The notes: a model not told the origin generated them from the sequence alone. 64,000 nt of DNA from an uncultured Candidatus Saccharibacteria bacterium (GCA_964565195.1 CAZMCQ010000004.1:64133-128132), one strand, 5' to 3'. Shown: positions 2,034 through 56,182, numbered from the stretch's first letter. Made by a program: numbers and translations.

Positions 2034-2066
2034 TACGAACTACGAACAATTACGAATCTACGAACA
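2034..2066 (+). repeat. TACGAAC tandem repeat element, copy 1 (GTACGAAC-TACGAAC-AAT-TACGAATCTACGAAC)
   Basis: Fills the rpsG stop to fusA ATG spacer exactly. Contains the 10-mer TACGAATCTA shared with 13374-13383 and 54623-54632, and inverted at 54688-54697. Confidence 0.7.
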
Positions 2067-2067
2067 G

Positions 2068-4182
2068 ATGACAAGAGAAATTCCTATCGAACAGACGAGA
2101 AACATCGGGATTATTGCCCACATTGACGCCGGCAAAACTACTGTGACGGAAGGTATTTTGTATAACACTGGTTTGAAGCACACGATTGGCCTGGTGCACG
2201 AGGGCGAGACGACCACGGATTGGATGGAGCAGGAGCGGGAGCGCGGCATCACCATTACGGCCGCGGCCGTAACCTGCTACTGGAACCCTTCGGCGGGCTC
2301 GGGGCAGAAGCACAAGATCAATATCATTGATACGCCCGGCCACGTGGACTTCACAGTCGAGGTCGAGCGCTCCCTGCGCGTGCTCGACGGCGCGGTCGTG
2401 GTTTTCGACGGCAAGATGGGGGTGGAGCCGCAGAGCGAGACAGTCTGGCGGCAGGCCGACAAATACCACGTGCCGCGCTTGTGCTTCATCAACAAGATCA
2501 ACCAGACGGGCGGCGATTTTTATAAAAGCCTGGACTCCATTCACCGCCGGCTTTCAGTCGATGCCTTCCCCATTCAACTGCCGATCGGTTTTGAAAAAGA
2601 TGTCTCGGGCTTTGCGGATCTCGTGCAGATGAAGGCCTATACTTACAAAGATTATACCGATAGAGATTTCACGGTCGGCGAGATTCCAGCTGACCTGAAA
2701 TCTCGCGCCGAAGAGTATCGCCGCAAGCTTTTGGAAAAAGTCGTGGAGAGCGATGACGCTATTTTGGAGAAATATTTGGCTGGTCAGGAGATCTCGGAAG
2801 CGGAATTTCTCACAGCCATCCGCAAGTCGGTGATGGGCGGGAAGTTCTTCCCGGTGCTCGGCGGCGATGGGCGCGGCGTGATCGTGCAGAGTATTCTCGA
2901 CGCCGTCGCCAACTTTTTGCCATCCCCGCTCGATCGCGGCGCGGTGAAAGGCAGCGAGCCGAAAACCGGCGCTGAAATCGAGCGCAAACCCGATGACGGC
3001 GAGCCGTTCTCGGCCCTCGCCTTCAAGATCGCCACTGACCCGTTTGTCGGCAAACTGGCGTTTTTCCGTGTTTATTCTGGCACACTCGCCGCCGGCTCTT
3101 ATGTCTTAAATACCCGCAGCGGCAACAAAGAGCGCGTCGGCCGCATCGTGCGTATGCATGCCAATGACCGCCAGGAAGTGAAGGAGGTCTTTGCCGGCGA
3201 CATTGCCGCGCTGGTTGGTCCGAAGGATACATTTACTGGTGATACGCTTTGCGACGTGGACAAGCCCATAATTTTGGAAACCATTATCTTCCCGGAGCCG
3301 GTCATCTCCCAGGCCATTGAGCCCCGGACCAAGGCCGACCAGGAGAAGATGGGGCTAGCACTTCAGAAACTCGGCGAGGAAGACCCGACGTTCCATATCA
3401 AAACCGACGAGGAGACGGCGCAGACCATCATCTCGGGCATGGGTGAGCTGCACCTGGAGATCATCGTGGACCGCATGAAGCGCGAGTTCAAGGTCGAGGC
3501 CAATGTCGGTGCGCCGCAGGTGGCTTACAAAGAGACGTTCAAAAAGACCGTGGAAGTGGAAGGCAAATACATCCGTCAGACCGGCGGCCGCGGCCAGTAC
3601 GGCCACGTCTGGCTGCGCCTCGAGCCGCAGGAGCGAGGGCGCGGCCGCGAGTTTTTGGATGAGATCGTGGGCGGTATCATCCCGCGCGAATACATTCCGG
3701 CCATTCAAAAGGGTATAATGGAAGCGGCGGACAATGGCGTCATTGCCGGCTTTCCGGTCGTGGATTTCAAAGCCGCCGCCTATGACGGCAGCTACCATGA
3801 GGTGGACTCATCCGAGATCGCCTTCAAGATCGCGGCCAGCAAAGCGTTCCAGGAAGGCATGCGCCGCGCCGCGCCGGTCATCCTCGAGCCGATCATGAAA
3901 ATCGAGGTCAACGTGCCCGAGGAATTTATGGGCGATGTCATCGGCGATATTTCCGCCAAGCGCGGCCAGGTGAGGGAGATGCATGAGCGCGGCCGCGCCA
4001 AGGTGATTGACGCCGAGGTGCCGCTGGGCGAGATGTTCGGCTACGCCACGACGATCCGCTCGATGTCCCAGGGCCAGGCCTCCTACACTATGGAATTCTC
4101 GCACTACGCCGAGGTGCCGAAAAGCATTGCCGAGAAGATCATCGGCGAGGGGCAGAAAATCAGAGTCGGGCAGAATAGATAG
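2068..4182 (+). CDS. fusA: elongation factor G
   Basis: [25 protein letters not shown]... with the G-domain motifs [17 protein letters not shown] and NKID. Confidence 0.95.
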
Positions 4183-4203
4183 CTTATAGGAGATAGCTTA
4201 TAG
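4179..4203 (+). promoter_or_regulatory. two 11-bp direct repeats (ATAGCTTATAG x2) overlapping the RBS and start of the YefM-like gene. Operator-like.
   Basis: ATAGCTTATAG-gag-ATAGCTTATAG-ATG. Includes the SD sequence AGGAG. Confidence 0.4.
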
Positions 4204-6065: not shown

Positions 6066-6070
6066 TAAAT

Positions 6071-6094
6071 AAACCGCCCGCAAGGGCGGTTTTA
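6071..6094 (+). terminator. rho-independent terminator after rpsJ
   Basis: ACCGCCC-gcaa-GGGCGGT followed by TTTT. Confidence 0.75.
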
Positions 6095-6226
6095 AGTTAT
6101 CCACGGCATTAAAACCGCTAGAGCATTTGACTGATAATCATTCGCGCGAATCGGTACATAGCCAGTTTTTGAGCAAAAAATCGAGCGCCGCTGTAAAAGT
6201 CGGCGCTCATTACGGTTTGAGGGTTT

Positions 6227-6255
6227 TTCATCAATTGTCTTCGTTTTGCTATAAT
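6227..6255 (+). promoter_or_regulatory. extended -10 promoter (TGcTATAAT) for the protease cassette
   Basis: TGCTATAAT at 6247-6255 with a weak -35 TTCATC at 17-nt spacing. GGAGG at 6268-6272 lies 5 nt before the ATG at 6278. Confidence 0.5.
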
Positions 6256-6277
6256 ACGAAAAACGACGGAGGTAATT

Positions 6278-6832
6278 ATGAGATATGTTGTCGGTTATGA
6301 CCGGGATTTTGCCACGCAATATTTCAGACGGAGCGTCCTACCCTTGCTCGCGCTGCCGCCATTTAAGGTTATCGCCGATGTGGAGCTGAACTACTTGGCG
6401 AGCAGGTTTGGCGAAGATGTCTGCGTTCCTTTGTATAATGAACTTGCACGCCCCCCGGAGCGGCACGCCATTGAGCTTTTGTTGGATATTAGAAAAGTGA
6501 GAGCGGACCGGCGGCTTAGTCAGATGGCTGAAGGGGCTGCCAACGGACTCCTTTTTTATCAGGGTTTGCCAGCGCGTGGTGGTTTGCGGAAACTTCGTCG
6601 GCTCGACATGAACCGTCGGCAAGTCGCAGTCCTTATCAAGAAACTATACAATCGCGCGGCATTGGCCAAATTTCGTACGAGTGACGAAAAAGGACTTTTC
6701 CACAGACTCAGCGAGCATATCCCCGAGTGGCTCGACCTCTTGTCGCTCATCCCGGGCAACGATTTTGTGGAGGTCCACGAGAGCTCCACGTCGCTACTGT
6801 TCGGGGTATCGCCCTCCACAAAAATCAACTAG
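6278..6832 (+). CDS. hypothetical protein (184 aa), first gene of the cassette inserted into the S10 operon
   Basis: Good SD (GGAGG) and promoter. No recognisable motif. A terminator follows. Confidence 0.55.
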   Translation: MRYVVGYDRDFATQYFRRSVLPLLALPPFKVIADVELNYLASRFGEDVCVPLYNELARPPERHAIELLLDIRKVRADRRLSQMAEGAANGLLFYQGLPARGGLRKLRRLDMNRRQVAVLIKKLYNRAALAKFRTSDEKGLFHRLSEHIPEWLDLLSLIPGNDFVEVHESSTSLLFGVSPSTKIN

Positions 6833-6837
6833 CTTTT

Positions 6838-6890
6838 GACCTTGGACTTTTCGCGCTTTCGGGCGCGGGGAGTCCAGGGTCTCTTTTTTT
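6838..6890 (+). terminator. rho-independent terminator (long GC hairpin + T9)
   Basis: GACCTTGGACT...CGCGC-tttcg-GCGCG...AGTCCAGGGTC followed by TCTTTTTTT. Confidence 0.7.
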
Positions 6891-6915
6891 CAAAAAAGTG
6901 GTAAAATTGATTTAT

Positions 6916-7290
6916 ATGATTATGGACAGACAGGAGTTTGAAAAATTGGTGGGGGAGGCGATTGAGGGGTTGCCGGAGCAGATTCGCGAGAAGATGGACA
7001 ATGTGGCGGTGGTGATTGAGGATTATCCAAAATCCAAACAGGGCGCTCTGCTCGGGCTTTATGAAGGCGTACCTCGGACGAAGCGGGGGCCGGGCTATAC
7101 TCTGGTTTTGCCGGACAAAATTACCATTTTCCAGAAATCCATCGAACAAATCGCCGCTACGCCCGAAGCGATCAGACAACAAGTGCGGCAAACCGTCTGG
7201 CACGAGATCGCGCACCACTTTGGGTTCAGCGAGGAAGGCGTGCAGGATCTCGCCAGGCGAAGGAAGGGCATTTCCCGGGACCGGACTTGA
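6916..7290 (+). CDS. small zincin-like metallopeptidase (HExxH)
   Basis: MDRQEFEKLVGEAIEGLPEQIREKMDNVAVVIEDYP...TVWHEIAHHFGFSEEG, giving a C-terminal HEIAHH motif. The N-terminus is uncertain (ATG at 6916 or 6922). Confidence 0.6.
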   Translation: MIMDRQEFEKLVGEAIEGLPEQIREKMDNVAVVIEDYPKSKQGALLGLYEGVPRTKRGPGYTLVLPDKITIFQKSIEQIAATPEAIRQQVRQTVWHEIAHHFGFSEEGVQDLARRRKGISRDRT

Positions 7291-7350
7291 CATTTTCGCG
7301 CCGCTGCGAGAAAATAGTATTGTAAATAATCATTAAACAAGGAACAAACC

Positions 7351-8118
7351 ATGAAACTTTCCCGAATTTTTGGCATTGCCGCCGTGATGACCCTGCTCGT
7401 CGGCGGTGTGCCGGTGTCTGCCGCTCACTCCTGGGGCAATTATCATTGGGCGCGGACAGCCAATCCCTTCACGCTGAAGCTTGGCGATAATGTTTCTTCT
7501 GCCTGGGATGACCAGTTGGGAGTCGCGTCGGCGGATTGGAGCTTGTCTTCGGTTTTGGATACGCAACTCACCGCCGGGGCAACTAATCCCAAAAACTGCC
7601 GACCGGCGAGCGGACGGGTAGAAGTCTGCAACAGCAAGTACGGCAAAAACGGCTGGCTTGGCGTGGCTTCCATCTGGATTTCCGGCAGCCACATTACCCA
7701 AGGCACGGTGAAGCTTAACGACACCTATTTTAACACGGCCCAATATAACACGCCGGCGTGGAGACAGTTTGTGATGTGTCAGGAGGTTGGCCATACCTTT
7801 GGCCTGGATCATCAGGATGAGAATTTTACCAATGCCAATCTCGGCAGCTGTATGGATTATACTAATGATCCGTCAACCAACCAGCATCCCAACCAGCATG
7901 ACTATGATCAGTTGGAGATAATCTATGAACATTTGGATAGCACCACGACCATTGCCTCCGCCGACCTTTCCAGCCCGGGCAAAGGCAATGATGTCGGTGA
8001 TGATCCGGCAAGCTGGGGGAAAGTTATCAAGCGCTCGGGCGATGGCAAAAGTTCGCTGCATGAAAAAGACCTGGGCCGCGGGGGCAAGGTCTTCACCTTT
8101 GTCATCTGGGCAGAATAA
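7351..8118 (+). CDS. secreted metzincin-like metalloprotease (serralysin/astacin-like motif with a Met-turn)
   Basis: N-terminal signal peptide MKLSRIFGIAAVMTLLVGGVPVSAAHS. The motif QEVGHTFGLDH fits xExxHxxGxxH. The Met-turn-like SCMDY fits SxMxY. Confidence 0.55.
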   Translation: MKLSRIFGIAAVMTLLVGGVPVSAAHSWGNYHWARTANPFTLKLGDNVSSAWDDQLGVASADWSLSSVLDTQLTAGATNPKNCRPASGRVEVCNSKYGKNGWLGVASIWISGSHITQGTVKLNDTYFNTAQYNTPAWRQFVMCQEVGHTFGLDHQDENFTNANLGSCMDYTNDPSTNQHPNQHDYDQLEIIYEHLDSTTTIASADLSSPGKGNDVGDDPASWGKVIKRSGDGKSSLHEKDLGRGGKVFTFVIWAE

Positions 8119-8124
8119 ATCTCT

Positions 8125-8154
8125 AAAAAACCCTGCCAGAGAGCGGGGTTTTTT
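8125..8154 (+). terminator. rho-independent terminator
   Basis: AAAAAA-CCCTGC-cagaga-GCGGGG-TTTTTT. Confidence 0.7.
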
Positions 8155-8160
8155 CAAGGT

Positions 8161-9627
8161 ATGGACATAAAAAAACTTCTCTCGATAGGTATTGTTTTGA
8201 TTTTGGCCGCGGCGGCCTATATCTTTTTGCGACCGGCGAACAACCTCCCGGCGAACAACCTCCTTGGAAAAAACATCGCGATTTACGCCTATACTGTGGC
8301 AGGCAAATCCAATGGGGGAGCGAGCGTGGCCGTGCCCTTTACTATTGACGCTAAGGACAGCGGATTGCTAAATGCCGCGCTTGATTTCAATCACGATGGC
8401 AAAGTCGCGGCAGAAGAATGGGTGGTGCAAAATATCCGGCCGCGTGTCCAGAAAGACGGCCGCAACCTTTTGCATTTTACCCTGCCAGAGGGAATAGCCC
8501 TTGGCGATGACAAGATTGCGGTATTTGTTGCATTGGGGAAAGAGCCACTCACGAATTGGGACGGCACAAAAACAGGCGCGTCTTACCGGCAGACGCGAGC
8601 CAAAATTTCACCAGTCGAGCTGGGCGATGTTCTGGGCTTAAATGTTCCGGGCGCGGGGCCGGATGTGTATCGCGGCAGTAACGGATCGTTTTTGAAGGAA
8701 TTTGCGGGAATCTCCACGGCTCTGGCTGATCCGATTGATGTGCAGTCAGACCTCGAGATCCCGGATTACCCACAGGGCAATATGGAATGCGGCCCGACTT
8801 CGGCCGCGAACAATCTTACTGGACTCGCCGGCGCCAATGGCGCAGGTGATAGATTACCAACCAATCCGCGTGAGATAATTGATGAGCTGAAAACGGATAT
8901 GAATTTCAACAACGGCGTGATTGGGGCTGACAATTTTGTGAATGGCAAAAACGCGTTTACCAGCCGCCACCAGCTGCCGATCACCACGACGGTGATTGAG
9001 CGGCCCTCGGTTCAGGATATCGCGAGCGCCATTCAGAACGGCTGCGCGGTGGAGATGGACCTCGCGTTTGTGGAGGCGGTAAATGGGCGAGCGGGCCGGC
9101 ATGTGGCCAGCCACACGGTCACGGTGACCGGTGTTTACTCTGACGGCGCGGACAAGGCGATTTATGGTGCTGATTCGGCGACGCCTGACGGGGTGGAGAT
9201 CTGGCGCTTCTCTGACCGGGGCCCGAATTTGCAGCTTGGCTATCCTTTATGGGATGGCGCGACTGTGGTGATGCGCATCTTCGTGCAGTGCTGGACGCCG
9301 CCGGCACAACCAGACGAGTCGCGCACCGCGCCGCCGGAAGAACCGGAAGACCAGGCCGGAAGTGGCAAAGCAGTGGAGATGCTCGTGATCAACGGTGTGT
9401 ACTATCCCAAGTACCAATTTCGCGTGGCTAATCCGGATGCATGCGGACAGCCGCATTATCATGCTGCTACGGCTTATGGACTCTCGGGCCGCGATTCGCT
9501 GGAAGTGGTGAGCGCGCCTGATCCCAATCCCAGCGGCTGCGGCTTTGGCGCAGTCGCCGAGGTGCCGGTGGAGACGATTACCATTTCCCACGAACAATCC
9601 CTTGAGCTTGTCAAATACCTCTGGTAG
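8161..9627 (+). CDS. membrane-anchored 488-aa protein with a papain-like (peptidase C39-like) Cys/His domain
   Basis: N-terminal TM segment LLSIGIVLILAAAAYIFL. The segment QGNMECGPTSAANNL resembles the C39 Q....CG.AS catalytic Cys region. The later GRHVASHTVTVTGVY resembles the His block. Confidence 0.4.
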   Translation: MDIKKLLSIGIVLILAAAAYIFLRPANNLPANNLLGKNIAIYAYTVAGKSNGGASVAVPFTIDAKDSGLLNAALDFNHDGKVAAEEWVVQNIRPRVQKDGRNLLHFTLPEGIALGDDKIAVFVALGKEPLTNWDGTKTGASYRQTRAKISPVELGDVLGLNVPGAGPDVYRGSNGSFLKEFAGISTALADPIDVQSDLEIPDYPQGNMECGPTSAANNLTGLAGANGAGDRLPTNPREIIDELKTDMNFNNGVIGADNFVNGKNAFTSRHQLPITTTVIERPSVQDIASAIQNGCAVEMDLAFVEAVNGRAGRHVASHTVTVTGVYSDGADKAIYGADSATPDGVEIWRFSDRGPNLQLGYPLWDGATVVMRIFVQCWTPPAQPDESRTAPPEEPEDQAGSGKAVEMLVINGVYYPKYQFRVANPDACGQPHYHAATAYGLSGRDSLEVVSAPDPNPSGCGFGAVAEVPVETITISHEQSLELVKYLW

Positions 9628-9636
9628 AATACATCC

Positions 9637-9765
9637 ATGATGGGATATGGAAACTTTGGGCAGATGATGGGCGGTGCGGGGTGGTTTGCGGGCCTCACGT
9701 GGCTCGTGGTGCTTATCGACCTCGTGCTGCTTGGCATCTGGCTCTGGAAGCAAATCCAAAAATAA
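9637..9765 (+). CDS. 42-aa Gly-rich hydrophobic peptide MMGYGNFGQMMGG|AGWFAGLTWLVVLIDLVLLGIWLWKQIQK
   Basis: ATG lies 10 nt after the stop of the C39-like gene. There is no SD. It has a double-glycine, then a TM helix, then a KQIQK tail. Below the ORF-track size cutoff. Confidence 0.3.
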   Translation: MMGYGNFGQMMGGAGWFAGLTWLVVLIDLVLLGIWLWKQIQK

Positions 9766-9787
9766 ATTGAGAAAAAATAAATTGAGA
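9761..9787 (+). repeat. 12-bp direct repeat AATAAATTGAGA x2 immediately upstream of the rplC promoter -35
   Basis: Seen directly in the sequence. Confidence 0.5.
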
Positions 9788-9788
9788 T

Positions 9789-9817
9789 TTGACACCCTCC
9801 CCGGGTTGTATTAGAAT
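9789..9817 (+). promoter_or_regulatory. promoter TTGACA-17nt-TAGAAT for rplC and the downstream S10/spc genes
   Basis: -35 at 9789-9794 and -10 at 9812-9817. Confidence 0.55.
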
Positions 9818-9853
9818 TAATCAGGAATTAATTAAATTGTCCTTCGGGACATG

Positions 9854-9919
9854 ATCCGCCGAATCGGCGGATATCGCCGAAGATTCGACTGTATAGCCAG
9901 CGGATCTTGCTGGTTTTTT
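9854..9919 (+). promoter_or_regulatory. structured S10-operon leader: perfect palindrome ATCCGCCG-aat-CGGCGGAT, then hairpin GCCAGC-ggatctt-GCTGG + T6 abutting the rplC start. Attenuator-like.
   Basis: Seen in the sequence. Position analogous to the L4-responsive S10 leader in E. coli. Confidence 0.4.
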
Positions 9920-9926
9920 GTTCAAA

Positions 9927-10544: not shown

Positions 10545-11193
10545 ACTTTATAATTCGGCAGGTGAAGCTATGTCTGAGATAGAGTTAAATCCAAAAATTT
10601 TTGCCGTTGAAAAAGTAAAACCCGAAGTCATTCATCAAGTTGTAGTTGCTAAATTGGCCAACAGGCGCCGCCCGATCGCCTCGACCAAGACGCGCGGGCA
10701 GGTGCGCGGCGGCGGCAAGAAGCCCTGGAAGCAAAAGGGCACGGGCAACGCGCGGGCCGGCTCCATCCGCTCGCCGCTCTGGCGCGGCGGCGGCATTACC
10801 TTTGGCCCGACGAGCGCGCGAAATTTTTCCAAGAAGCTTAACAAAGCCATGATCAAGAGCGCGCTTTTGGCCGCACTCACTGATAAAGCGCAGGGCAACA
10901 AAATTTTTGTCATGGAAGGCCTGGCTCTGCCGAGCGGCAAGACAAAAGAGCTGGCCAGTAAATTGGCCGATCTAGCCAGGAAATTTTCGAGCCCCGGCCG
11001 TACTTTGATCGTCACCGGCCAGCGCGACGAGAAGCTGGAACTCGCCTCGCGAAACCTGCCGGATGCCAAAGTTTGCCTGGCCAGCGGTTTGGATATTTTG
11101 GATATCGTGAACGCCGCCAAGGTTGTTATGACCAAAGACGCGCTACCGGTTTTGGAAAAGGCATACTTAAGAACGCAAGAACCGAAGAACTAA
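10531..11193 (+). CDS. rplD: 50S ribosomal protein L4
   Basis: MSQVKLYNSAGEAMSEIELNPKIF... with AAGGA upstream. The C-terminus ...LRTQEPKN is encoded by AAGAAC repeats. Confidence 0.88.
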   Translation: MSQVKLYNSAGEAMSEIELNPKIFAVEKVKPEVIHQVVVAKLANRRRPIASTKTRGQVRGGGKKPWKQKGTGNARAGSIRSPLWRGGGITFGPTSARNFSKKLNKAMIKSALLAALTDKAQGNKIFVMEGLALPSGKTKELASKLADLARKFSSPGRTLIVTGQRDEKLELASRNLPDAKVCLASGLDILDIVNAAKVVMTKDALPVLEKAYLRTQEPKN

Positions 11194-11198
11194 AGAAC
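11169..11198 (+). repeat. 8-nt periodic tandem repeat (nnAAGAAC)x4 spanning the rplD stop and ending at the rplW ATG
   Basis: TTAAGAAC GCAAGAAC CGAAGAAC TAAAGAAC ATG. Confidence 0.65.
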
Positions 11199-12787: not shown

Positions 12788-13354
12788 ATGGCAGACGAGA
12801 AGCAAAAAGAAATCGCCGAGGTCAGGGCCTCCGCCCGGCGGGTGCATATCTCTCCGCGGAAAGCGCGTCTGGTCGCGAACCTGCTCAAAACATTGCCGGT
12901 GGAGCAGGCGCTTTTGGAGCTGCAGTTCCGCGCCTCCCGGGCGACAGTGCCGATCCGGAAACTGGTGACTGCGGCGATTGCCAACGCCGCGCATAATTTT
13001 CAGATTGAGGCCGACCGGCTGTACGTCAAAAATATTACGGTGGACGGCGCCGAAGTCATGATGCGGTATAAACCGGGCGCGCAGGGCCGTGCGGTTGCGG
13101 TGCGGAAACGCCCGAGCCAGACCAACCTGATTGTGGGCGTGCGACCGGGCCTGCCCCAAAAAAAGGCAGCTCCGACCAAAGTCGAAGCAGAGGCAGAGGT
13201 CGGGAAAGAGACCAAGCCCGCGGTAGAGGTAAAGGCAGCGGTGTCAAAGCCAGAACAACCAAAGAGGAGATGGGGCTTCCTGCGCCGCAGACCTCGGCAG
13301 GAATTTACCAAAGGGAAAAAATACACGGGCTTTGACCGCCGCTCGGGGAGTTAG
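12788..13354 (+). CDS. rplV: 50S ribosomal protein L22 (roughly 70-aa C-terminal basic extension)
   Basis: MADEKQKEIAEVRASARRVHISPRKARLVANLLK... Confidence 0.88.
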   Translation: MADEKQKEIAEVRASARRVHISPRKARLVANLLKTLPVEQALLELQFRASRATVPIRKLVTAAIANAAHNFQIEADRLYVKNITVDGAEVMMRYKPGAQGRAVAVRKRPSQTNLIVGVRPGLPQKKAAPTKVEAEAEVGKETKPAVEVKAAVSKPEQPKRRWGFLRRRPRQEFTKGKKYTGFDRRSGS

Positions 13355-13396
13355 AGTACGAACCACGAACATGTACGAATCTACGAATACGAATAA
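13355..13396 (+). repeat. TACGAAC tandem repeat element, copy 2
   Basis: GTACGAAC-CACGAAC-ATG-TACGAATCTACGAA-TACGAA immediately after the rplV stop. Confidence 0.7.
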
Positions 13397-13551
13397 CATG
13401 ATATATTGCAAAGAAACTATTAAGTTCGCAAAAATTGGAGCGGAGCTCGAAGAGCGAGCACGATTTTTGCGAAGAAGGAGTAATCAGTGTGACGGAGCGG
13501 CCCGGATCCGCCTGGGGCGGAGAGGGGACGCGAAGACACACCAATTACGAC

Positions 13552-14226
13552 GTGGGGCATAAAGTTGATCCAAGAAGTTTGAGACTCAAGATTACCGACA
13601 CGTGGAAGTCGCGGTGGTTTGCCCGCGGCCGGAAATTTTCTCAAGGCCTGCGGGAAGACAGCGTTATCCGCGACCTGGTTTGGCAGAAGTATCGAAAAGC
13701 CGGGGTGATCCGGATTGACATCGAACGCACGGGCCAGGAGATCAATGTCATCATCCATTCCACTCGTCCGGGAATGATTATCGGCAAAGGCGGCGGCGGC
13801 GTGGAGGAGCTGAAAAAGGAATTGAAAGCCAGACTTCGCCTGAAGACTGACCTCAAGATCACGATAGAAGAATCGCGTCAGGTCAATCTTGAGGCGCAGG
13901 TTTGGGCGCAGACCCTGGCCGAGCAGATGGAAAAACGGGCGAGCTTTCGCCGCGCGATCAAAACCGCGCTGGAGCAGATTATGGATGCCGGCGCGCTCGG
14001 GGCGAAGATTGCGATCTCGGGGCGCCTGGGCGGGGCGGAAATTGCTCGCACCGAGTGGCTCTACCGCGGCAAACTGCCGTTGCACACGCTGCGGGCGAAC
14101 ATTGATTTTGCCCGCGCGACGGCCTATACGACTTATGGCACCATCGGCGTAAAAGTTTGGATCAATAAAGGCGAGGTATTCGGAAAAACGGAAGAACCAA
14201 AGAACTTAAGAACGAAAGAACGCTGA
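13552..14226 (+). CDS. rpsC: 30S ribosomal protein S3
   Basis: The S3 body begins (V)[23 protein letters not shown]..., with GTG at 13552 as the probable start. The ORF-track ATG at 13435 would add 39 non-S3-like residues. The tail ...[11 protein letters not shown] is encoded by AAGAAC repeats. Confidence 0.8.
14192..14221 (+). repeat. 8-nt periodic tandem repeat (nnAAGAAC)x4 at the 3' end of rpsC
   Basis: GAAGAACC AAAGAACT TAAGAACG AAAGAACG. Paralogous to 11169-11198. Confidence 0.65.
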
Positions 14227-16482: not shown

Positions 16483-16887
16483 TTGCATATGCCAATGACT
16501 GATCCAATTTCTGACATGTTAACGCGAATTCGCAACGGACTTCAGGCCAAAAAGCCGGAAGTGGTTTTGCCATATTCGCGTCTGAAGGCGAACCTCGCCA
16601 GACTTTTTGCCGAGCAGGGCTGGCTTCTGCAGGTGGAAGAGGCCGAAAGTGATGACGGGAAATTGTTGCGCCTGGTTTTGAAATATGATGCGGGCGGCGC
16701 GCCCGCCATTTCCGGCATTGTCCGCGTGAGCCGGCCCGGGCAGCGCATCTATGCGGCCTCTACCAATATTCCGCGCGTTTCGCATGGCATTGGGGCGACG
16801 ATAGTCTCGACTTCAAAGGGACTGCTTACCGACAAGGAGGCGCGTTCACAAAAAATCGGCGGCGAAGTAATCTGTCAAGTCTGGTAG
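16483..16887 (+). CDS. rpsH: 30S ribosomal protein S8
   Basis: ...MTDPISDMLTRIRNG... The start is possibly the ATG at 16495. Confidence 0.9.
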   Translation: MHMPMTDPISDMLTRIRNGLQAKKPEVVLPYSRLKANLARLFAEQGWLLQVEEAESDDGKLLRLVLKYDAGGAPAISGIVRVSRPGQRIYAASTNIPRVSHGIGATIVSTSKGLLTDKEARSQKIGGEVICQVW

Positions 16888-16896
16888 TGTACGAAC

Positions 16897-30437: not shown

Positions 30438-30475
30438 ACTGCAAATTACTAATTACTAATTTCTAACAAAAATTT

Positions 30476-40774: not shown

Positions 40775-40890
40775 TACTTGTCATTCCCGCCCCCCGATCG
40801 CAGTCGAGGGCAAGCTTCGCGGGAATATATAATAATGGAACTGGATTCCGGGTCCCTCCAAAGGCGGGCAGGCAGGCCCGGAATGACAGA
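40775..40890 (+). repeat. family 2 hairpin module variants (TGTCATTCCCGC...GCGGGAATATATAAT and GGATTCCGGG...CCCGGAATGACA) upstream of the glycosyltransferase
   Basis: Shares ATTCC(C/G)GC-loop-GC(G/C)GGAAT(GACA) with 42117-42144 and 58278-58302. Confidence 0.6.
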
Positions 40891-40898
40891 TAAAGATT

Positions 40899-42113
40899 AT
40901 GATACTGGGCATTGATGCGAGTCAGGCGAACAGGAAGGTCAGAAGCGGGACGGAGTGGTATGCTTTCCATTTGATAGATGAGTTCAAAACGCTGCTGCGC
41001 GATCGATCTGATGTCCGCGTGGTTTTGTATCTGAAAGACGCGCCGCAGGCAGATTTGGTCAATAACTTGCCCGACAATTTTTCGGTGAAGATATTGCGCT
41101 GGCCATTGAAATATTTTTGGGGACAAATCAGGTTATCATGGGATATCCTGCGAAATACGCCCGATGTATTATTTTGCCCAGCTCATACAATTCCAATCTC
41201 GACCTCTCTCCTAACCTCTCCCCATCACCTGGGGAGACGAAGAATGCGGGTATTTACGACCTTGCATGACATTGGGTTTGAGGATAATCCGGAACTTTAT
41301 GATAAATTGTCGCTTTGGTACCATCGCTGGTCGGCGAAATTTGCGGTGAAACATGCGTATCATATTTTTACGATCTCGGAATTTTCAAGGCAAAGAATTA
41401 TGGAAGTGTATGGGTGTCCGGAGGAGAAGTTGAGTGTCACTTATCTTGGGGTTAACCCCTCTGCCCCTTCGGGGCATCTCCCCTCGCCAGGAGAGAGAAA
41501 AAATGAATATTTATTATTTGTAGGCAGACTCGAGCCAAAGAAGAATATTCTGAACATCGTGAAGGCGTATGAAAAATTTGTGTCATTGCGAGCGCAAGCG
41601 AAGCAATCCCAGGGCGAAACCGAGATTGCTTCGTCGCAAGCTCCTCGCAACGACATTCCGGATCTTATCCTCGCGGGACGCAAAGTCAGGGTTGCCGATG
41701 TTGAAGATTATTTATCCAAAAGGTCTGAGCTTGCCAAACGCGTTAGATTCACGGGCTACATCAGCGAGGGGGAAAAGCAACAGCTTTATCGCGATACCGC
41801 CGTATTTGTTTTCCCCACTTTTTATGAAGGATTTGGGATCCCCATTCTGGAAGCCCAGAGTTTTGGCGTTCCGGTGATTACGTCCAATCGCACAGCTAAC
41901 CCAGAAATAGCGGGCGAGGGCGCGCTGATTGTTAATCCGGAAAGCGTGAATGACATCGCGGCAGCCATTGGGAAACTTTTGGGCGACCAAAGTTTACGTG
42001 AGGAGAAGATTAGATTAGGATTAGAGAATGTGAAGCGATTTAGTTGGGGAGAGACGGCAAAACTGACATTAGCAAAGCTGATGTCATCCCGGACTAGATC
42101 CGGGAACTATTAA
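40899..42113 (+). CDS. GT4-family glycosyltransferase carrying two in-frame palindromic repeat inserts
   Basis: ...YLLFVGRLEPKKNI... and ...FVFPTFYEGFGIPILEAQSFGVPVI... The inserts are TSPHHLGRRR (41205-41245) and PSAPSGHLPSPGER (41455-41500). The C-terminal tail SSRTRSGNY is encoded by hairpin 42087-42105. Confidence 0.85.
   Translation: MILGIDASQANRKVRSGTEWYAFHLIDEFKTLLRDRSDVRVVLYLKDAPQADLVNNLPDNFSVKILRWPLKYFWGQIRLSWDILRNTPDVLFCPAHTIPISTSLLTSPHHLGRRRMRVFTTLHDIGFEDNPELYDKLSLWYHRWSAKFAVKHAYHIFTISEFSRQRIMEVYGCPEEKLSVTYLGVNPSAPSGHLPSPGERKNEYLLFVGRLEPKKNILNIVKAYEKFVSLRAQAKQSQGETEIASSQAPRNDIPDLILAGRKVRVADVEDYLSKRSELAKRVRFTGYISEGEKQQLYRDTAVFVFPTFYEGFGIPILEAQSFGVPVITSNRTANPEIAGEGALIVNPESVNDIAAAIGKLLGDQSLREEKIRLGLENVKRFSWGETAKLTLAKLMSSRTRSGNY
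41205..41245 (+). repeat. palindromic repeat family 1, copy B (AACCTCTCCCC-atcacct-GGGGAGACG) inside the glycosyltransferase ORF
   Basis: Near-identical to copy A. Confidence 0.7.
41455..41500 (+). repeat. palindromic repeat family 1, copy C (CTGCCCC-ttc-GGGGCA; TCTCCCCT-cgcca-GGAGAGAG) inside the glycosyltransferase ORF
   Basis: Imperfect double hairpin. Confidence 0.55.
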
Positions 42114-42165
42114 GAATGGATTCCCGCCTTCGCGGGAATGACAATTTGAGAAAATGCTATAATAT
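42083..42165 (+). repeat. family 2 two-hairpin gene-boundary module: TCCCGGA-ctaga-TCCGGGA, AACTATT, ATTCCCGC-cttc-GCGGGAAT-GACA, then TGcTATAAT
   Basis: The glycosyltransferase stop codon lies inside the module. The -10 at 42158-42163 is 8 nt before the holB ATG. Paralogous to 58226-58308. Confidence 0.7.
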
Positions 42166-45657: not shown

Positions 45658-45686
45658 TTGAAAAAGAACCTAGGTTGCTGTATAAT
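45658..45686 (+). promoter_or_regulatory. near-consensus promoter TTGAAA-17nt-TATAAT with the hicB ATG 6 nt downstream (leaderless)
   Basis: -35 at 45658-45663, -10 at 45681-45686, ATG at 45693. Confidence 0.6.
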
Positions 45687-45692
45687 CAGGAC

Positions 45693-45920
45693 ATGAAGCA
45701 CATCATCCAATTTCGCATAACCAAGTACGAAAACTACTATGTGGCCGAAGGGCTGGATCTGGCTATTGTTACCCAGGGTAATACTTTAGACGAGGTGGTG
45801 GCAAATTTGAAAGAAGCGCTCCAGCTTCATCTGGAAGGCGAAAATCTGACATCTCTTGGGCTTGCCCCTGATCTCCACGCCTTAGTTAATTATGAAGTAG
45901 TAGACCTAGTGCGTGCCTAA
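45693..45920 (+). CDS. hicB: HicB-family antitoxin
   Basis: MKHIIQFRITKYENYYVAEGLDLAIVTQGNTLDEVVANLKEALQLHLEGE... (UPF0150/HicB fold). Confidence 0.72.
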   Translation: MKHIIQFRITKYENYYVAEGLDLAIVTQGNTLDEVVANLKEALQLHLEGENLTSLGLAPDLHALVNYEVVDLVRA

Positions 45921-46155
45921 ACTTCGGGTATTGTCAGGGCAGGACTTGGTTAAAATTTTCAATAAGCTCGGATTCGCTGTGGCTGCCCAAAGAGGCAGCC
46001 ACATTAAACTTAGACGAGTTACGGCCGACGGTTCAGTTCAGATTTTGACTATTCCAAGTCACAAGGAAATCAAAACAGGGACGTTAAAGGCAATCTATAA
46101 CCAAGCTTTGCGATTTATTTCGGAAGCAGAATTGAGAAAGGAATTTTATCAATGA
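45913..46155 (+). CDS. hicA: HicA-family mRNA interferase toxin
   Basis: ...LSGQDLVKIFNKLGFAVAAQRGSHIKLRRV...VQILTIPSHKEIKTGTLKAIYNQA... Overlaps hicB by 8 nt. Confidence 0.78.
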   Translation: MPKLRVLSGQDLVKIFNKLGFAVAAQRGSHIKLRRVTADGSVQILTIPSHKEIKTGTLKAIYNQALRFISEAELRKEFYQ

Positions 46156-46306: not shown

Positions 46307-47509
46307 ATGCGCCAATCGCAACTGTTTACAAAAACTTTAAAATCAGTTTCAAAAGATAAGCAGAGTGTGAACGCGCAGCTACTCGAGCGCGGGGGATTTA
46401 TTTTCAAAAATTCCGCGGGGGTTTACACGTTCCTGCCATATGGCTGGCGCGTGATGAAGAAGATCATGAACATCATTCGCGAAGAGATGGACGCGATCGG
46501 CGGCGAAGAGCTGTTTATGCCGGCGCTGGTGGAAAAGAAATATATGGACGCGACTGGCCGGTGGAATACAGATATCGGCTTCAAAATTCAGGACGAGAAC
46601 TTTGTGCTCGGCTGGACGCATGAAGAAGTCCTGACCGCGATAACTTCAAAATTCATCAGTTCCTACAAAGATCTGCCCTTTAGCGCGTATCAGATCCAGA
46701 CCAAGTTTCGCAATGAAGCGCGCGCCAAGTCTGGCCTGCTGCGCGGGCGCGAATTTATGATGAAGGATCTTTACAGCTTCCACGCGAGCGAAGAAGACCT
46801 CTGGAAATACTATGAAGAGGTAAAAAAAGCGTATTTCAAAGTTTTCGAACGCTGTGGCCTGAAAACAGTTTATACGGTTGCCGCCGGCGGAGATTTCACA
46901 GTCAGCAATACCCACGAATTTCAAGTCTTGTCAGAAGTTGGGGAGGATAAAGTGATGGTTTGCTCAAAATGCAGCTATGCCGAGAACGGCGAAATTTCCA
47001 AACTCAAAAGCGGCGACAAATGCCCGCAATGTGGCGGGAAAATTAATGAAAAACGCGGCATTGAGGTGGGCAACATCTTTCCACTTGGCACAAAATATTC
47101 GGACGCTTTTGGATTAAAATTTACTGACGAGGCCGGCCAGCAGCAAGCCGTGGTTATGGGGTCCTATGGCATTGGCCTTGGCCGCGTGATGGGCGCAATA
47201 GTCGAGGTTTCGCATGACGAAAAAGGCATCATCTGGCCGGAAAGCGTGGCGCCGTTTCGGGTTCATCTGCTGGCACTCAATGTTGATGCAGAGAAACAAT
47301 ACGAAACTTTACGGAAGGCCGGGATTGGGGTATTCTATGATGACAGGGAGGTTTCCGCAGGGGTCAAATTCGCGGATGCGGATCTGCTCGGTATCCCTTG
47401 GCGGGCTGTGGTGTCAGAAAAAACTGGAGACAAGGTGGAAATTAAAAAACGAAATGGGAAGAATTCAAAATTAATCTCACTGGAAGAGTTGCTAAAAATC
47501 AAAAATTAA
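46307..47509 (+). CDS. proS: prolyl-tRNA synthetase (short form lacking an editing insertion)
   Basis: Class II aaRS motifs ...FMMKDLYSFH... and ...VVMGSYGIGLGRVMGAIVE... Confidence 0.82.
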   Translation: MRQSQLFTKTLKSVSKDKQSVNAQLLERGGFIFKNSAGVYTFLPYGWRVMKKIMNIIREEMDAIGGEELFMPALVEKKYMDATGRWNTDIGFKIQDENFVLGWTHEEVLTAITSKFISSYKDLPFSAYQIQTKFRNEARAKSGLLRGREFMMKDLYSFHASEEDLWKYYEEVKKAYFKVFERCGLKTVYTVAAGGDFTVSNTHEFQVLSEVGEDKVMVCSKCSYAENGEISKLKSGDKCPQCGGKINEKRGIEVGNIFPLGTKYSDAFGLKFTDEAGQQQAVVMGSYGIGLGRVMGAIVEVSHDEKGIIWPESVAPFRVHLLALNVDAEKQYETLRKAGIGVFYDDREVSAGVKFADADLLGIPWRAVVSEKTGDKVEIKKRNGKNSKLISLEELLKIKN

Positions 47510-47596
47510 ATATTAAAAATAAAAATGACAGGGTAAAATTAGAAAATTTTTAATTTTGCTTTGTCATTTTCCATTTTGATTTTTGCATTTTGAACT

Positions 47597-54151: not shown

Positions 54152-54613
54152 ATGGCAAAAAAACATCTCCTCACACAGGATGGATTGACCAAACTGAAAA
54201 ATGAGCTGGAGACATTAATCAAGGAGCGCCGCAGGGAAGTGATCGAGCGTATTCAGGAGGCGGTCGCGCATGGCGACCTCTCGGAAAACGCGGATTATGC
54301 GCAGGCCAAGGAAGAGCAGGCCTTTATCGAGGGCCGGATTCAGGAGCTTGAGGAGATCATTAAAAACGCGGAGATTATCCGGAGTAATGGCGACAGGAAT
54401 ATCATCTCGGTTGGCTCGACAGTGAAATTGAAGATTAATGGTCAGGAGAAAGTCTACACGATCGTCGGTTCGAATGAGGCGAATCCGGCCGAAGGAAAAA
54501 TCTCCAATGAATCGCTGGTCGGGCAGAGATTGCTCGGCGCGAAGCCCGGGGACAAGGTCGAGGTGACCACTCCCGGTGGCAAAGTACTGTACGAAATCGT
54601 GGAGATTCGCTAA
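54152..54613 (+). CDS. greA: transcription elongation factor GreA
   Basis: ...LTQDGLTKLKNELETLIKERRREVIERIQEAVAHGDLSENADYAQAKEEQAFIEGRI... Confidence 0.9.
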   Translation: MAKKHLLTQDGLTKLKNELETLIKERRREVIERIQEAVAHGDLSENADYAQAKEEQAFIEGRIQELEEIIKNAEIIRSNGDRNIISVGSTVKLKINGQEKVYTIVGSNEANPAEGKISNESLVGQRLLGAKPGDKVEVTTPGGKVLYEIVEIR

Positions 54614-54646
54614 AGCACGAACTACGAATCTATACGAACCTACGAA
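54614..54646 (+). repeat. TACGAAC tandem repeat element, copy 3 (CACGAAC-TACGAATCTA-TACGAAC-CTACGAA)
   Basis: Immediately after the greA stop and before terminator 54645-54670. Confidence 0.7.
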
Positions 54647-54670
54647 AAACTGCCTTCTTGGGCAGTTTTG
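54645..54670 (+). terminator. rho-independent terminator
   Basis: AAAAA-CTGCC-ttctt-GGGCAG-TTTT, then TGtTATAAT at 54671-54679. Confidence 0.65.
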
Positions 54671-54684
54671 TGTTATAATTAAGT

Positions 54685-54702
54685 TTGTAGATTCGTAAAT
54701 CT
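54685..54702 (-). repeat. inverted copy of the TACGAATCTA motif in the lysS leader
   Basis: TAGATTCGTA is the reverse complement of TACGAATCTA. Confidence 0.65.
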
Positions 54703-54718
54703 TAGTAGTTTGTACCCA

Positions 54719-56182
54719 ATGACGGAAAAAGAAGAACAGCTTTACCGGGACCGCCTGAAAAAACTGGAAGGATTGCGCGCCGCTGGCACCGATCCTTATC
54801 CAGCCAAAACGAAACGAACACACAAAGTCAGTGCAGCGCTGGATAATTTTTTTGTGCTTTCCAAAGGCGCCAAGCAGATTTCGCTGGCCGGGCGTATCCG
54901 CGGCCTGCGCGGCCATGGGGCAATAATTTTTGGCCATCTCGAGGACGGCAGCGCTAGCATGCAAATTCTGCTGCGCGGGGATCTGGTCGCGAAAAAAAAA
55001 TTTGATATCTTCAGAAAATATATTGACATCGGCGATTTCATCTCTGCGACCGGCAAGCTCATCCAAACGAAGCGCGGGGAAAAAACTTTGGAGGTTAAGG
55101 ACTATCAAATCCTCACCAAGAGTCTCCGCGCGCTGCCCGAGCAGTGGCATGGCCTGCAGGACATCGAGACGCGCCTGCGGCAGCGGTACTTAGATTTTAT
55201 TTCAAACCCTGAAGCCAAGGAGCTGTTTTTGAAGAAAGCGAAATTCTGGAAAGCTCTCCGGGAAAATTTAGAGAAGGCCGGGTTCATCGAGATTGATACG
55301 CCCGCGCTGGAGGATGTCGCCGGCGGCGCTGACGCGACGCCATTTGTCACGCATCACAACGCGCTTAACCGCGATTTTTATTTGCGGGTCTCTTTGGAAC
55401 TTCCCTTGAAGAAAATCATCATCGGGGGCTTTGAAAAAATATACGAGATCGGCAAAATTTTTCGCAACGAAGGGATTTCGACGGAACATCTGCAGGATTA
55501 TCTCGAGTGCGAATTTTACTGGGCTTACGCGGAGTATGAAGAGCTGATGGGTTTTGTGGAACAGCTTTATAAAGCCATTGTGAAGGAAACCACCGGAGGA
55601 CTAGCGACCGCATTCCAAGAGCAGAAGATAAACTGGGGCAAAAAATGGCCGCGCGTGGATTATTTCCGGCTGATCGAAAAAGAGCTGGACATAGACCTCG
55701 AAAAAATGTCGGATGAGAAGCTGAAAAAATATGCTCTCGGGCATGGCCTGAAAACCGATCCGGCCTGGGGCCGGGGACGGATCATTGATTATATTTTCAA
55801 AAAAAGGGTCAGGCCGAAAATTATCCAGCCGATGTTTCTCATCAATCATCCGATCGAGGTTTCGCCGTTGGCGAAACAGCACCGCCAGCTCGCCGGCCGC
55901 GTGGAGCGGTTCAATGTGATCGCCGCGGGCACAGAACTTGGCAACGGTTTCTCGGAACTGAACGACCCGGTTGATCAGCAAATGCGTTTCCAGGAGCAGA
56001 TGGAGCTGCGCCGCGCCGGAGACCCCGAAGCGCAGATGATGGACGAGTCCTTTGTCGAGGCGCTCGAGTATGGCCTGCCGCCGACGGCCGGTTATGGACT
56101 GTCGGAACGGCTTTTTGCAGTGCTGATGGATAAATCAGTAAGAGAAACGGTGGTTTTCCCGCCAATGAGGGGGAAAGATTAA
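54719..56182 (+). CDS. lysS: lysyl-tRNA synthetase (class II)
   Basis: MTEKEEQLYRDRLKKLEGLRAAGTDPYPAK... with class II motifs. The TTG at 54710 is an alternative start. Confidence 0.9.
   Translation: MTEKEEQLYRDRLKKLEGLRAAGTDPYPAKTKRTHKVSAALDNFFVLSKGAKQISLAGRIRGLRGHGAIIFGHLEDGSASMQILLRGDLVAKKKFDIFRKYIDIGDFISATGKLIQTKRGEKTLEVKDYQILTKSLRALPEQWHGLQDIETRLRQRYLDFISNPEAKELFLKKAKFWKALRENLEKAGFIEIDTPALEDVAGGADATPFVTHHNALNRDFYLRVSLELPLKKIIIGGFEKIYEIGKIFRNEGISTEHLQDYLECEFYWAYAEYEELMGFVEQLYKAIVKETTGGLATAFQEQKINWGKKWPRVDYFRLIEKELDIDLEKMSDEKLKKYALGHGLKTDPAWGRGRIIDYIFKKRVRPKIIQPMFLINHPIEVSPLAKQHRQLAGRVERFNVIAAGTELGNGFSELNDPVDQQMRFQEQMELRRAGDPEAQMMDESFVEALEYGLPPTAGYGLSERLFAVLMDKSVRETVVFPPMRGKD

Follow-up and report, generated by a model that had tools for sequence, protein, structure and literature searches.

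The TACGAAY blocks that stand at several gene junctions of the DNA analysed here are, in our judgement and with moderate confidence, members of a dispersed, insertion-prone, non-coding repeat family of Patescibacteria, and not a signal specific for ribosomal-protein genes. In the window, by which we mean the whole analysed stretch of 64,000 nucleotides, the family is represented by two solo arms (at rpsG-fusA and rplV-rpsC) and by one degenerate pair of arms around the greA hairpin and the lysS -10 box. Judging from their design, the four heptads of an arm are probably a recognition module for a protein. We propose that a trans-acting protein (transposase-, recombinase- or RAYT-like) would copy or maintain the arms, and that the copies would land in scarce non-coding positions, mostly the 0-10-nt stop-to-start gaps inside operons. 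The arms at ribosomal-protein gene junctions would be found there because compact genomes offer few other non-coding positions. Full elements would be tolerated since they fold away and keep stop and start close together, and solo arms would be tolerated since they are G-poor and unstructured and thus do not occlude the next start codon. Such tolerance is plausible in an SD-poor genome.

The genomes of CPR bacteria (Patescibacteria) are tiny and tightly packed, and to our knowledge almost nothing is known about the control of gene expression in these organisms. On the proposed reading, CPR operon junctions, even those of essential ribosomal-protein operons, would have been colonised repeatedly by one recognisable four-heptad element, which is common to several classes and turns over between near-identical genomes. 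The arm would then provide both a sequence handle in the search for its recognition protein and a marker for strain-level variation in metagenomes. In addition, the inserts of 30-120 nt between stop and start provide a natural experiment on how the translation of neighbouring genes tolerates such inserts in mostly SD-less organisms. For annotators they carry a warning, namely that TACGAAY blocks should not be taken for operon-specific regulators.

TACGAAY arms and AAGAAC arrays in the window

The window has a G+C content of 52.8% and carries nearly all of its genes on the + strand, with the str, S10 and spc ribosomal-protein operons followed by housekeeping genes. The gene names given in the original prediction (S7, EF-G, L4, L23, L22, S3, L16, S8, L6, GreA and LysRS) were confirmed, and the S7 and L4 proteins are identical to those of the Candidatus Doudnabacteria metagenome-assembled genome GCA_016198105.1. 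An SD-like core is found at 11-13 of the 67 starts of the window, compared with 3-8 expected by chance. The search of the whole window against Rfam at the gathering threshold gave no family for the TACGAAY arm, and a Pfam scan of the 20 uncharacterised window proteins found neither a transposase nor a nuclease.

The 10-mer TACGAATCTA occurs at positions 2051, 13374 and 54623 on the + strand and at 54688 on the - strand. These four matches compare with 0.04 expected, and none of 100 shuffles of the window reached four, in agreement with the original prediction that the fourfold occurrence is not due to chance. The bare heptamer TACGAAC is weakly enriched (7 occurrences versus 3.8 expected). For the three forward copies, the layout is a stronger fact than the 10-mer. 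All three consist of four ACGAA(C/T) units that begin at intervals of 7, 10 and 8 nt, with free spacer bases between them. The corresponding layout, ACGAAY-N-ACGAAY-N4-ACGAAY-N2-ACGAA, is matched exactly at 2035-2064, 13358-13387 and 54617-54646, while its expectation in the window is 0.00 even when three mismatches are allowed. Over 32 nt, arms 1 and 2 hardly differ, and their loci are unlinked. The base of the single-nucleotide spacer is C in five of five copies of this genome versus 3 of 18 elsewhere, and the copies within this genome are more alike than copies from different genomes. The arm is a specific, non-random, copied sequence, and the earlier view that it does not reflect drift therefore stands. 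The coordinates of all features are collected in Table 1; loci and contigs fetched for comparison are designated by L numbers.

Table 1. Positions of TACGAAY and AAGAAC features in the window and just outside it
Feature	Position	Strand	Sequence or composition	Location and remarks
Solo arm 1	2034..2066	+	TACGAAC-TACGAAC-AAT-TACGAAT-C-TACGAAC	Profile match 33.6 bits, E 4.5e-8
AAGAAC array	11169..11198	+	(AAGAAC+NN)x4	rplD last codons and stop (TAA, 11191-11193); ends at rplW ATG (11199)
Solo arm 2	13356..13394	+	GTACGAAC-CACGAAC-ATG-TACGAAT-C-TACGAAT, plus a fifth ACGAAT	Profile match 33.7 bits
AAGAAC array	14184..14221	+	(AAGAAC+NN)x4-5	rpsC C-terminal tail; stop TGA 14224-14226; rplP ATG 14232
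Single TACGAAC	16890..16896	+	TACGAAC	Between rpsH stop (16885-16887) and rplF ATG (16897)
Left arm of greA-lysS element	54616..54646	+	CACGAAC-TACGAAT-CTA-TACGAAC-C-TACGAA	Profile match 31.2 bits
Inner hairpin	54646..54669	+	AAAACTGCC/GGCAGTTTT	Perfect 9-bp inverted repeat with T-rich tail; apex of composite element
-10 box match	54671..54679	+	TGTTATAAT	Matches extended -10 box (TGnTATAAT); between inner hairpin and right arm
Degenerate right arm of greA-lysS element	54684..54713	-	Reverse complement TACAAAC-TACTAAG-ATT-TACGAAT-C-TACAAAC	
Fifth arm of this genome	L312 6552-6586		TACGAACTACGAACTTTTACGAATCTACGAACATG	Between rpmB and M50-peptidase gene; outside the window
Degenerate full element	L310 607-695			Fills dnaB-recR junction; outside the window; -31.6 kcal/mol

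Solo arm 1 occupies the entire gap from the rpsG stop (TAG, 2031-2033) to the fusA ATG (2068), a spacer of 34 nt, and is unstructured as RNA (z -0.35). Solo arm 2 starts 2 nt past the rplV stop (13352-13354) and ends 3 nt ahead of an ATG at 13398, which opens an unannotated ORF of 54 codons; it is also unstructured (z +1.33). No inverted partner was found for either of these two arms. Arm 2 had been described as standing right after the rplV stop. It does not abut rpsC: it makes up the beginning of an insert of 197 nt ahead of that gene, and another 154 nt of the insert come between them. Homology to S3 begins at GTG 13552; an extension preceded by an SD (AAGGAG) would move the start to GTG 13489. 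The rest of the insert (13398-13551), searched both as DNA and as peptide, yielded no homologs, and the features seen by eye at rplV-rpsC were not flagged by consensus scans for promoters and terminators. The position of the single TACGAAC before rplF, previously given as 16882-16888, was wrong and is corrected in Table 1. This copy may be a remnant or a chance occurrence, as one heptamer is not significant alone. Beyond the window, the same assembly yielded two further copies, the fifth arm (L312) and the degenerate full element (L310). The ATG at L312 6584 that follows the fifth arm opens a 2-codon ORF only.

The third strong copy of the window belongs to a composite element between greA and lysS. 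Its left arm begins 2 nt past the greA stop (54611-54613), and its right arm sits in the lysS leader, 5 nt ahead of the ATG at 54719. As 30-nt arms, 54617-54646 and 54684-54713 are 77% complementary, and over 29 nt the latter matches the reverse complement of arm 1 with 86% identity. The inverted copy reported earlier in the lysS leader is thus real, and it proves to be a degenerate full-length arm. No start codon follows the greA copy; a hairpin and a T-rich run are found there instead. The region 54608-54722 folds as one composite hairpin (-34.7 kcal/mol, z -5.3). By eye, the inner hairpin, in which the 3' stem half GGCAGTTTT is followed by GTGTT, looks like a putative greA terminator, although the consensus terminator scan did not call it. 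We consider TGTTATAAT a candidate promoter of lysS; a scan for -35/-10 sequences gave no match at 54671..54679. Because the consensus scans flagged neither, we treat the greA terminator and the lysS promoter as candidates only.

The second type of repeat in the window is built on AAGAAC. The array (AAGAACNN)x4 is exact at 11169-11198 and at 14192-14221, compared with 0.00 expected. All eight AAGAAC units are perfect and strictly spaced by 8 nt, and the six spacer dinucleotides all differ. Both arrays are unstructured (z -0.78 for rplD and +0.11 for rpsC). L4 and S3 owe their C-terminal tails to these arrays, as the original prediction stated, whereas the L4 of L083 (ending ...YL*) and the S3 of L146 (ending ...GEKF*) lack an array tail. 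The accompanying statement that each array ends at the next start codon applies to the rplD array, which ends at the rplW ATG, but not to the rpsC array, whose end is separated from the rplP ATG by 10 nt. In L082, the closest relative (74% L4 identity), the rplD-rplW junction contains five units versus four in the window, and among the loci examined no locus besides L082 was found to carry such an array. The AAGAAC arrays are real and lineage-specific. They follow the same logic of a fixed unit, a free spacer and four copies as the TACGAAY arms, and they may represent a sister of the arm in this lineage, or slippage may have produced them in part. As a relative of the arm, they would have been inserted at the very end of rplD and rpsC, where they are partly translated.

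Distribution, anatomy and turnover of the family

An L2-based scan with one genome per species yielded 80 ribosomal-protein loci from many phyla, the best relatives among them being only 60% identical. The patterns of this genome-collection scan were too generic for a search, and the loci were kept as a control set of CPR and non-CPR sequences. Within this set, arm-profile matches or ACGAA clusters were found in L004 (Uhrbacteria), L006, L076, L080, and the Doudnabacteria loci L083/L084 and L087/L088, that is, only in loci from Patescibacteria; the profile search gave no arm in the non-CPR loci of the set (L002-L088). In metagenomes, at least 120 stretches contained three TACGAAY units separated by 0-3 nt. 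The matches listed are of two kinds. Some are simple (TACGAAT)n microsatellites, frequently with (ATTCGTA)n behind them, in contigs of 29-69% G+C; others, in low-G+C contigs, show the arrangement CC-TACGAAT-TACGAAT-NNN-TACGAAT-N-TACGAAT. The 7-10-8 spacing is present in at least 21 arms from at least 15 loci, while each of its five permutations occurs 0-1 times among the matches listed; the retrieval pattern would accept all spacing permutations equally. Exact-sequence look-ups of neighbouring proteins labelled contigs with the arm as Falkow-, Magasanik-, Nealson- and Gribaldobacteria. The sample is biased, since the metagenome matches were obtained through the pattern of three TACGAAY units and selection of the other loci was centred on ribosomal proteins. 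Genes in the fetched loci were called crudely, as simple ORFs, and taxon labels are available for some of the contigs only.

The arm layout had no match in 2.9 million viral contigs. The plain repeat (TACGAAT)3 occurs in 63 viral-contig stretches, compared with 21 and 7 for heptads of the same composition, and heptad microsatellites in general are over-represented. An Rfam search by E-value with five element-rich loci gave only sub-threshold matches to plant miRNA hairpins, and literature searches by motif string and by topic turned up no description of a TACGAAY element.

All arms are intergenic, with the outer end typically 3-8 nt from a stop or start codon. An arm is about 32 nt long, and its outer end often reads CC-TAC. 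The usual form is the full element, an interrupted hairpin of 85-123 nt that occupies a stop-to-start junction and in which a loop of 17-60 nt separates the left arm from an inverted right arm; its arms of 30-34 nt form terminal inverted repeats around a short non-coding core. In the single-strand fold of the full element, stems of 14, 7 and 7 bp are separated by a 3x3 internal loop and a 1x1 mismatch, in that order. The internal loops are constant because the spacer triplets of the two arms are non-complementary. Full elements fold at z -5.3 to -6.7, and solo arms are common (z -0.35 and +1.33 for the two of the window). In L146, the two arms of each element represent two subtypes (A and B), and its three copies have loops of different sequence, 17, 22 and 41 nt long. 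The genes next to arms elsewhere in Patescibacteria include gap, tpiA, rnhA and a TraC-like gene, those in this genome include greA-lysS and rpmB/M50-peptidase, and in L146 and L093 the arms lie inside ribosomal-protein operons.

In about 2 Mb of fetched loci, there was no bracketing arm pair that would mark an autonomous partner; the 1.1-kb pair in L160 encloses murI. None of the arms in the loci examined had a transposase as its neighbour. The one Y1_Tnp fragment seen in these loci (L086 5463-5756), considered as a possible cognate transposase, has no adjoining arms and no homolog in the other loci. The filled sites show no consistent target-site duplication, with a possible duplication of TAACAT at one site only.

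In the CPR ribosomal-protein loci, four-unit arrays of heptads or octads are plentiful (19 in L004 alone) and mostly have an inverted partner close by; the non-CPR loci of this set contain hardly any. The arrays have a conserved core of 5-6 nt, a spacing of 7-10 nt and free spacer bases. Many different cores occur, TACGAAT being the most widely shared. According to a 2026 survey of 118,019 genomes, no other phyla reach the density of perfect inverted repeats that the CPR phyla show (PMC13155455).

The original prediction called the element conserved, but no arm is present at the rpsG-fusA junction of the closest available relatives. In six contigs (L209-L214) with S7 proteins 85-88% identical to that of the window, the distance from the rpsG stop to the fusA ATG is 0-4 nt, the junctions being TAAATG, TAAATATG, TAATTTATG and TAGCCCCATG. 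More distant Doudnabacteria carry unrelated hairpin inserts at rpsG-fusA, and the rplV-rpsC junction is tight in three other Doudnabacteria (L083, L086 and L088). A similar difference exists between close genomes of another lineage. The S8-L6 spacer is 119 nt long in L146, where it holds a full element of 110 nt, versus 4 nt in L306, L307 and L308, where the junction reads TGGTAAAAATATG and the flanking genes are 97% identical to those of L146 at the DNA level. This difference could reflect a recombination tract and not transposition, because the second codon of rplF differs too. The element at S3-L16 is identical between L146 and L306-L308, and the L14-L24 junction carries different variants. 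At L24-L5 of these genomes, an unrelated hairpin family also shows presence and absence.

Relative to transcription, arms are found in either direction; reverse-orientation arms stand directly before start codons in L148 and in L083, in the latter before the rplR ATG. Among solo arms, the ratio of about 9 sense to 3 antisense is not significant. In the folding test, the sense strand was more stable in 8 of 15 elements and the antisense strand in 7, that is, without a sense-strand advantage. Since both orientations occur and the sense strand has no advantage, we take the element to be a property of the DNA that is gained and lost on short time scales.

Weighing the explanations for the arms

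Several observations speak against reading the arms as a mobile family. There is no consistent target-site duplication, and neither a transposase nor an autonomous partner was found beside the arms or in the window. The loops differ within one genome, which is unlike a young MITE and like a set of independently maintained sites. The heptad and its spacing are kept across several classes, which is unusual for a selfish element and would fit a host function equally well. Finally, the difference between L146 and L306 may be a recombination tract. A more specific proposal, that the 7-10-8 arm is the recognition site of a conserved protein of Patescibacteria, either a domesticated HUH/RAYT-like nuclease or an oligomeric nucleic-acid-binding protein, is offered as speculation and seems to us rather doubtful. 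If it were true, a phylum-wide REP-RAYT-like or TRAP-like system would seed and maintain hairpins and spacers at stop-start junctions and shape the operon expression of CPR bacteria, with the 8-8-8 arrays of AAGAAC as its lineage-specific variant.

The original prediction had listed a protein-binding site among its candidates, and the invariant units, fixed spacing and free spacer bases suggest protein recognition. The arms might accordingly be binding sites of a host protein, with one heptad per subunit or domain, that act in transcript processing, stability or translation and have spread since they are useful. Besides this design, which eight perfect AAGAAC units with six differing spacer dinucleotides repeat and which is kept across several classes of the phylum, the lack of both target-site duplications and a transposase is in favour of this explanation. 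Many copies also flank highly expressed genes (those for ribosomal proteins and EF-G, gap, tpiA, atpC). The sites of TRAP and HutP consist of short invariant units (spaced triplets) with constrained spacing and unconstrained spacer bases, and their logic resembles that of the TACGAAY arms and AAGAAC arrays. However, TRAP and HutP sites are strand-specific, lie in the leaders of specific regulated operons and are conserved at orthologous positions, none of which holds for the TACGAAY arms. Host sites acting on transcripts also fit poorly with arms in both orientations, with the lack of a folding advantage on the sense strand, and with neighbouring genes that have no common function. Junctions without an arm in close relatives, including the presence and absence between flanks of 97% identity, point the same way. 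At greA-lysS, the arms lie on opposite sides of the terminator-like hairpin and the -10 box, and would therefore usually be on different transcripts. On this evidence, we regard functional host-protein sites, the main rival of the proposed reading, as unlikely.

Still less probable, in our view, is that the solo arms and AAGAAC arrays are unstructured, G-poor leaders selected for SD-independent initiation or re-initiation, as standby or 70S-scanning spacers. This explanation draws on the 11-13 of 67 window starts with an SD-like core, on the absence of structure in arms and arrays (z -0.78 to +1.33), and on the position of arms that end 0-3 nt before an ATG (at fusA, the ORF at 13398, rplF and L312 6584), as well as on the array that ends exactly at the rplW ATG. 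However, what comes after the greA copy is a hairpin instead of a start codon, the ORF that begins at the ATG behind the L312 copy has only two codons, and reverse arms also stand directly before starts (L083 and L148). Relatives cope with junctions of 0-4 nt. Most members of the family are stable hairpins, the opposite of an unstructured leader, and a general lack of structure does not explain the fixed 7-10-8 layout. A passive effect of solo arms on initiation is possible, because they are unstructured and stand directly before an ATG.

We consider it very improbable that the repeats are local microsatellites, produced by replication slippage without dispersal or function. Heptad microsatellites are indeed widespread, as the counts for (TACGAAT)3 in viral contigs (63 stretches versus 21 and 7) illustrate. 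Many (TACGAAT)n runs are present among the metagenome matches listed, in contigs of 29-69% GC, and the number of AAGAAC units varies between the window (four) and L082 (five). However, slippage gives regular periods and identical spacers, while the arms have an irregular 7-10-8 layout with variable spacers in unrelated genomes. Moreover, the unlinked loci of arms 1 and 2 carry near-identical stretches of 32 nt, and inverted copies exist. For the TACGAAY arms, an origin by slippage is thus largely refuted.

An autogenous operator, at which a ribosomal protein of the S7 or L4 type would bind the mRNA of its own operon at the junctions, has almost no probability left. Three of the four strong-arm loci of this genome adjoin ribosomal-protein genes, but this proportion is not significant (p ~0.13, using an estimate that about one third of the junctions in the sampled 81 kb flank ribosomal-protein genes). 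Arms do lie inside the ribosomal-protein operons of L146 and L093, but they are not conserved at orthologous junctions, occur beside unrelated genes and bear no resemblance to the ribosomal-protein leaders in Rfam. The original prediction had named an S7 or L4 operator, a coupling signal and an SD-independent enhancer at ribosomal-protein junctions; all three lack support, as the arms are non-conserved, occur in both orientations and have non-ribosomal neighbours.

Other candidates were also rejected. A structured RNA element of the sense strand was discarded given the absence of an Rfam match, the stability of the sense strand in 8 of 15 elements and the non-complementary spacers. A LexA/Cheo box (CGAACATGTACG in arm 2), DNA uptake sequences, K-turn motifs, -10 promoter boxes and complementarity to an alternative anti-SD or to rRNA, for which only a 6-mer match may exist, do not fit the data on layout, copy number and orientation.

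Resemblance to described repeat families

The TACGAAY family resembles REP/BIME elements, MITEs and STRRs, and it corresponds to the full definition of none of them. Like the arms, the REP/BIME elements of enterobacteria and pseudomonads, which are associated with RAYT transposases, are short extragenic units of about 30-35 nt, often located in operons and co-transcribed. Both occur singly or as inverted pairs with variable linkers and without target-site duplication. REP pairs comprise two subtypes, the Y and Z REPs, with which the A and B types of arm may be compared. REPs have a GTAG head, and the outer ends of the arms (CCTAC...GTAGG) recall this GTAG. However, a REP is itself an imperfect palindrome, while the TACGAAY arm is not and does not fold alone. 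The arm has four heptads, its consensus spans classes of a phylum and not one genus, and no RAYT or Y1 transposase was found near the arms in the loci examined.

Full elements are similar to Correia elements and other MITEs, which are non-coding sequences of about 100-150 nt with terminal inverted repeats, intergenic and co-transcribed, and which form long hairpins (a general description of MITEs is given in PMC3184786). MITEs also show presence/absence polymorphism between strains, as the TACGAAY elements do. In contrast to MITEs, the TACGAAY elements have no consistent TA or other target-site duplication, their internal sequence is not conserved within a genome, solo arms are common, and no parent IS is known.

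The nearest described analogue is the STRR of filamentous cyanobacteria. These are 7-bp intergenic repeats that form hairpins, for example at hupS-hupL, and their function is unknown (PMC2670836). As in the arms, the units are 7 nt long and intergenic and form hairpins with an inverted array, and several unit sequences per genome occur both among STRRs and in CPR loci. STRRs belong to another host phylum and are regular tandem arrays, whereas the TACGAAY arm is irregular (7-10-8) and has exactly four units; regular (TACGAAT)n arrays do occur in other contigs.

TACGAAY repeats outside the window and plain heptad arrays

The same assembly contains two further TACGAAY structures just beyond the window, namely a fifth arm with the 7-10-8 heptad spacing, which terminates in a two-codon ORF (ATGAAATAA), and a degenerate full element (Table). 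In addition, we observed plain (TACGAAT)n microsatellites in contigs with a G+C content of 29-69% among the metagenome matches listed (L089-L208) and in the viral contigs (L215-L277). Behind these runs there is often (ATTCGTA)n and at times a T-run, and arrays of other heptads adjoin them. In the viral contigs, the (TACGAAT)n microsatellites are 3-9 times more common than either of two heptads with identical composition.

Other tandem repeats were found in intergenic regions of the window, including 14-nt and 15-nt duplications. The mreB-like gene is preceded by TAAAAAT x5 and ATTTTGC x6, and (AATTACT)x3, each unit of which differs from TACGAAT by one base, lies immediately upstream of gap. 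A full TACGAAT element is located at the same gene in the metagenome locus L117. The Doudnabacteria loci L083/L084 have two (nnAGAAT)x4 arrays, one at the rpsS-rplV junction and the other apparently within the annotated rplC coding region.

Table. Coordinates of repeats, hairpins and genes in the window and comparison loci
Feature	Stretch	Coordinates	Details
Fifth 7-10-8 arm	L312	6552-6586	between rpmB and M50 peptidase gene
Degenerate full element	L310	607-695	occupies whole dnaB-recR junction
Intergenic tandem repeats	window	4177-4203, 9758-9787, 30444-30466, 47493-47592	
(nnAGAAT)x4 arrays	L083/L084	8198-8223, 11604-11629	7-nt spacing
13-bp hairpin	window	13425-13473	within rplV-rpsC insert; z -2.9
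AAGGAG	window	13475-13480	8 nt upstream of in-frame GTG 13489
54-codon ORF	window	13398-13562	overlaps conserved S3 start at 13552
Terminator-like hairpin, CCAGC...GCTGG + T6	window	9897-9919 (region 9857-9926)	end 7 nt upstream of rplC ATG
(S)G(N)(R)ATGACA motif	window	40779-40888, 42082-42143, 56205, 58293	
~100-nt element, TTTACCCACCAAAATTT...AAATTTAGGYGGGTAAA	L086	10652-10756	
~100-nt element, TTTACCCACCAAAATTT...AAATTTAGGYGGGTAAA	L088	11992-12093, 14549-14634, 15007-15108	
~95-nt hairpin element, CCCCGTTAGAAAAC...CTAACGGGAT	L306	4701-4823	L24-L5 junction
~95-nt hairpin element, CCCCGTTAGAAAAC...CTAACGGGAT	L308	399-521	L24-L5 junction
HicA toxin gene	window	45913-46155 (locus 45675-46155)	

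Features of the S10 operon region

The terminator-like hairpin upstream of rplC is also kept in the closest relative (L082) and in L083, and may serve the L3-L4 portion of the S10 operon as an attenuator or leader. In the window, rpsJ and rplC are separated by ~3.8 kb of non-ribosomal genes (6066-9917), whose products are one zincin-like peptidase plus two proteins of secreted or membrane type that match peptidase families weakly. This block is likewise contained in the GenBank contig.

The insert between rplV and rpsC comprises 197 nt in total, and its remainder past the solo TACGAAY arm (13398-13562) has no similar sequence among the comparison loci. Translation from the GTG at 13489 would possibly add a 21-residue N-terminal extension to S3.

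Other inverted-repeat and hairpin families

The (S)G(N)(R)ATGACA motif occurs 11 times in the window versus 1.8 expected, and looks like a second inverted-repeat family. Upstream of genes, some of its copies are arranged as inverted pairs (...CGCGGGAATGACA), and a similar pair, GTCATCCCGCGC...GCGCGGGATGAC, was identified in the ribosomal-protein locus L006.

Several ribosomal-protein junctions in L086 and L088 are filled by the ~100-nt element (end sequences in the Table), three of the four copies of which carry a conserved mini-ORF of 24-25 codons (M[I/T]KLINI...KNLGG*). The stop codon of this mini-ORF, TAA, overlaps the start codon (ATG) of the gene that follows, an arrangement suited to termination-reinitiation. 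The ~95-nt hairpin element is present in L306 and L308, two near-identical genomes, and absent from two others, L307 and L146.

Elsewhere in the window, a small ORF upstream of the HicA toxin gene probably encodes its HicB-like antitoxin partner.
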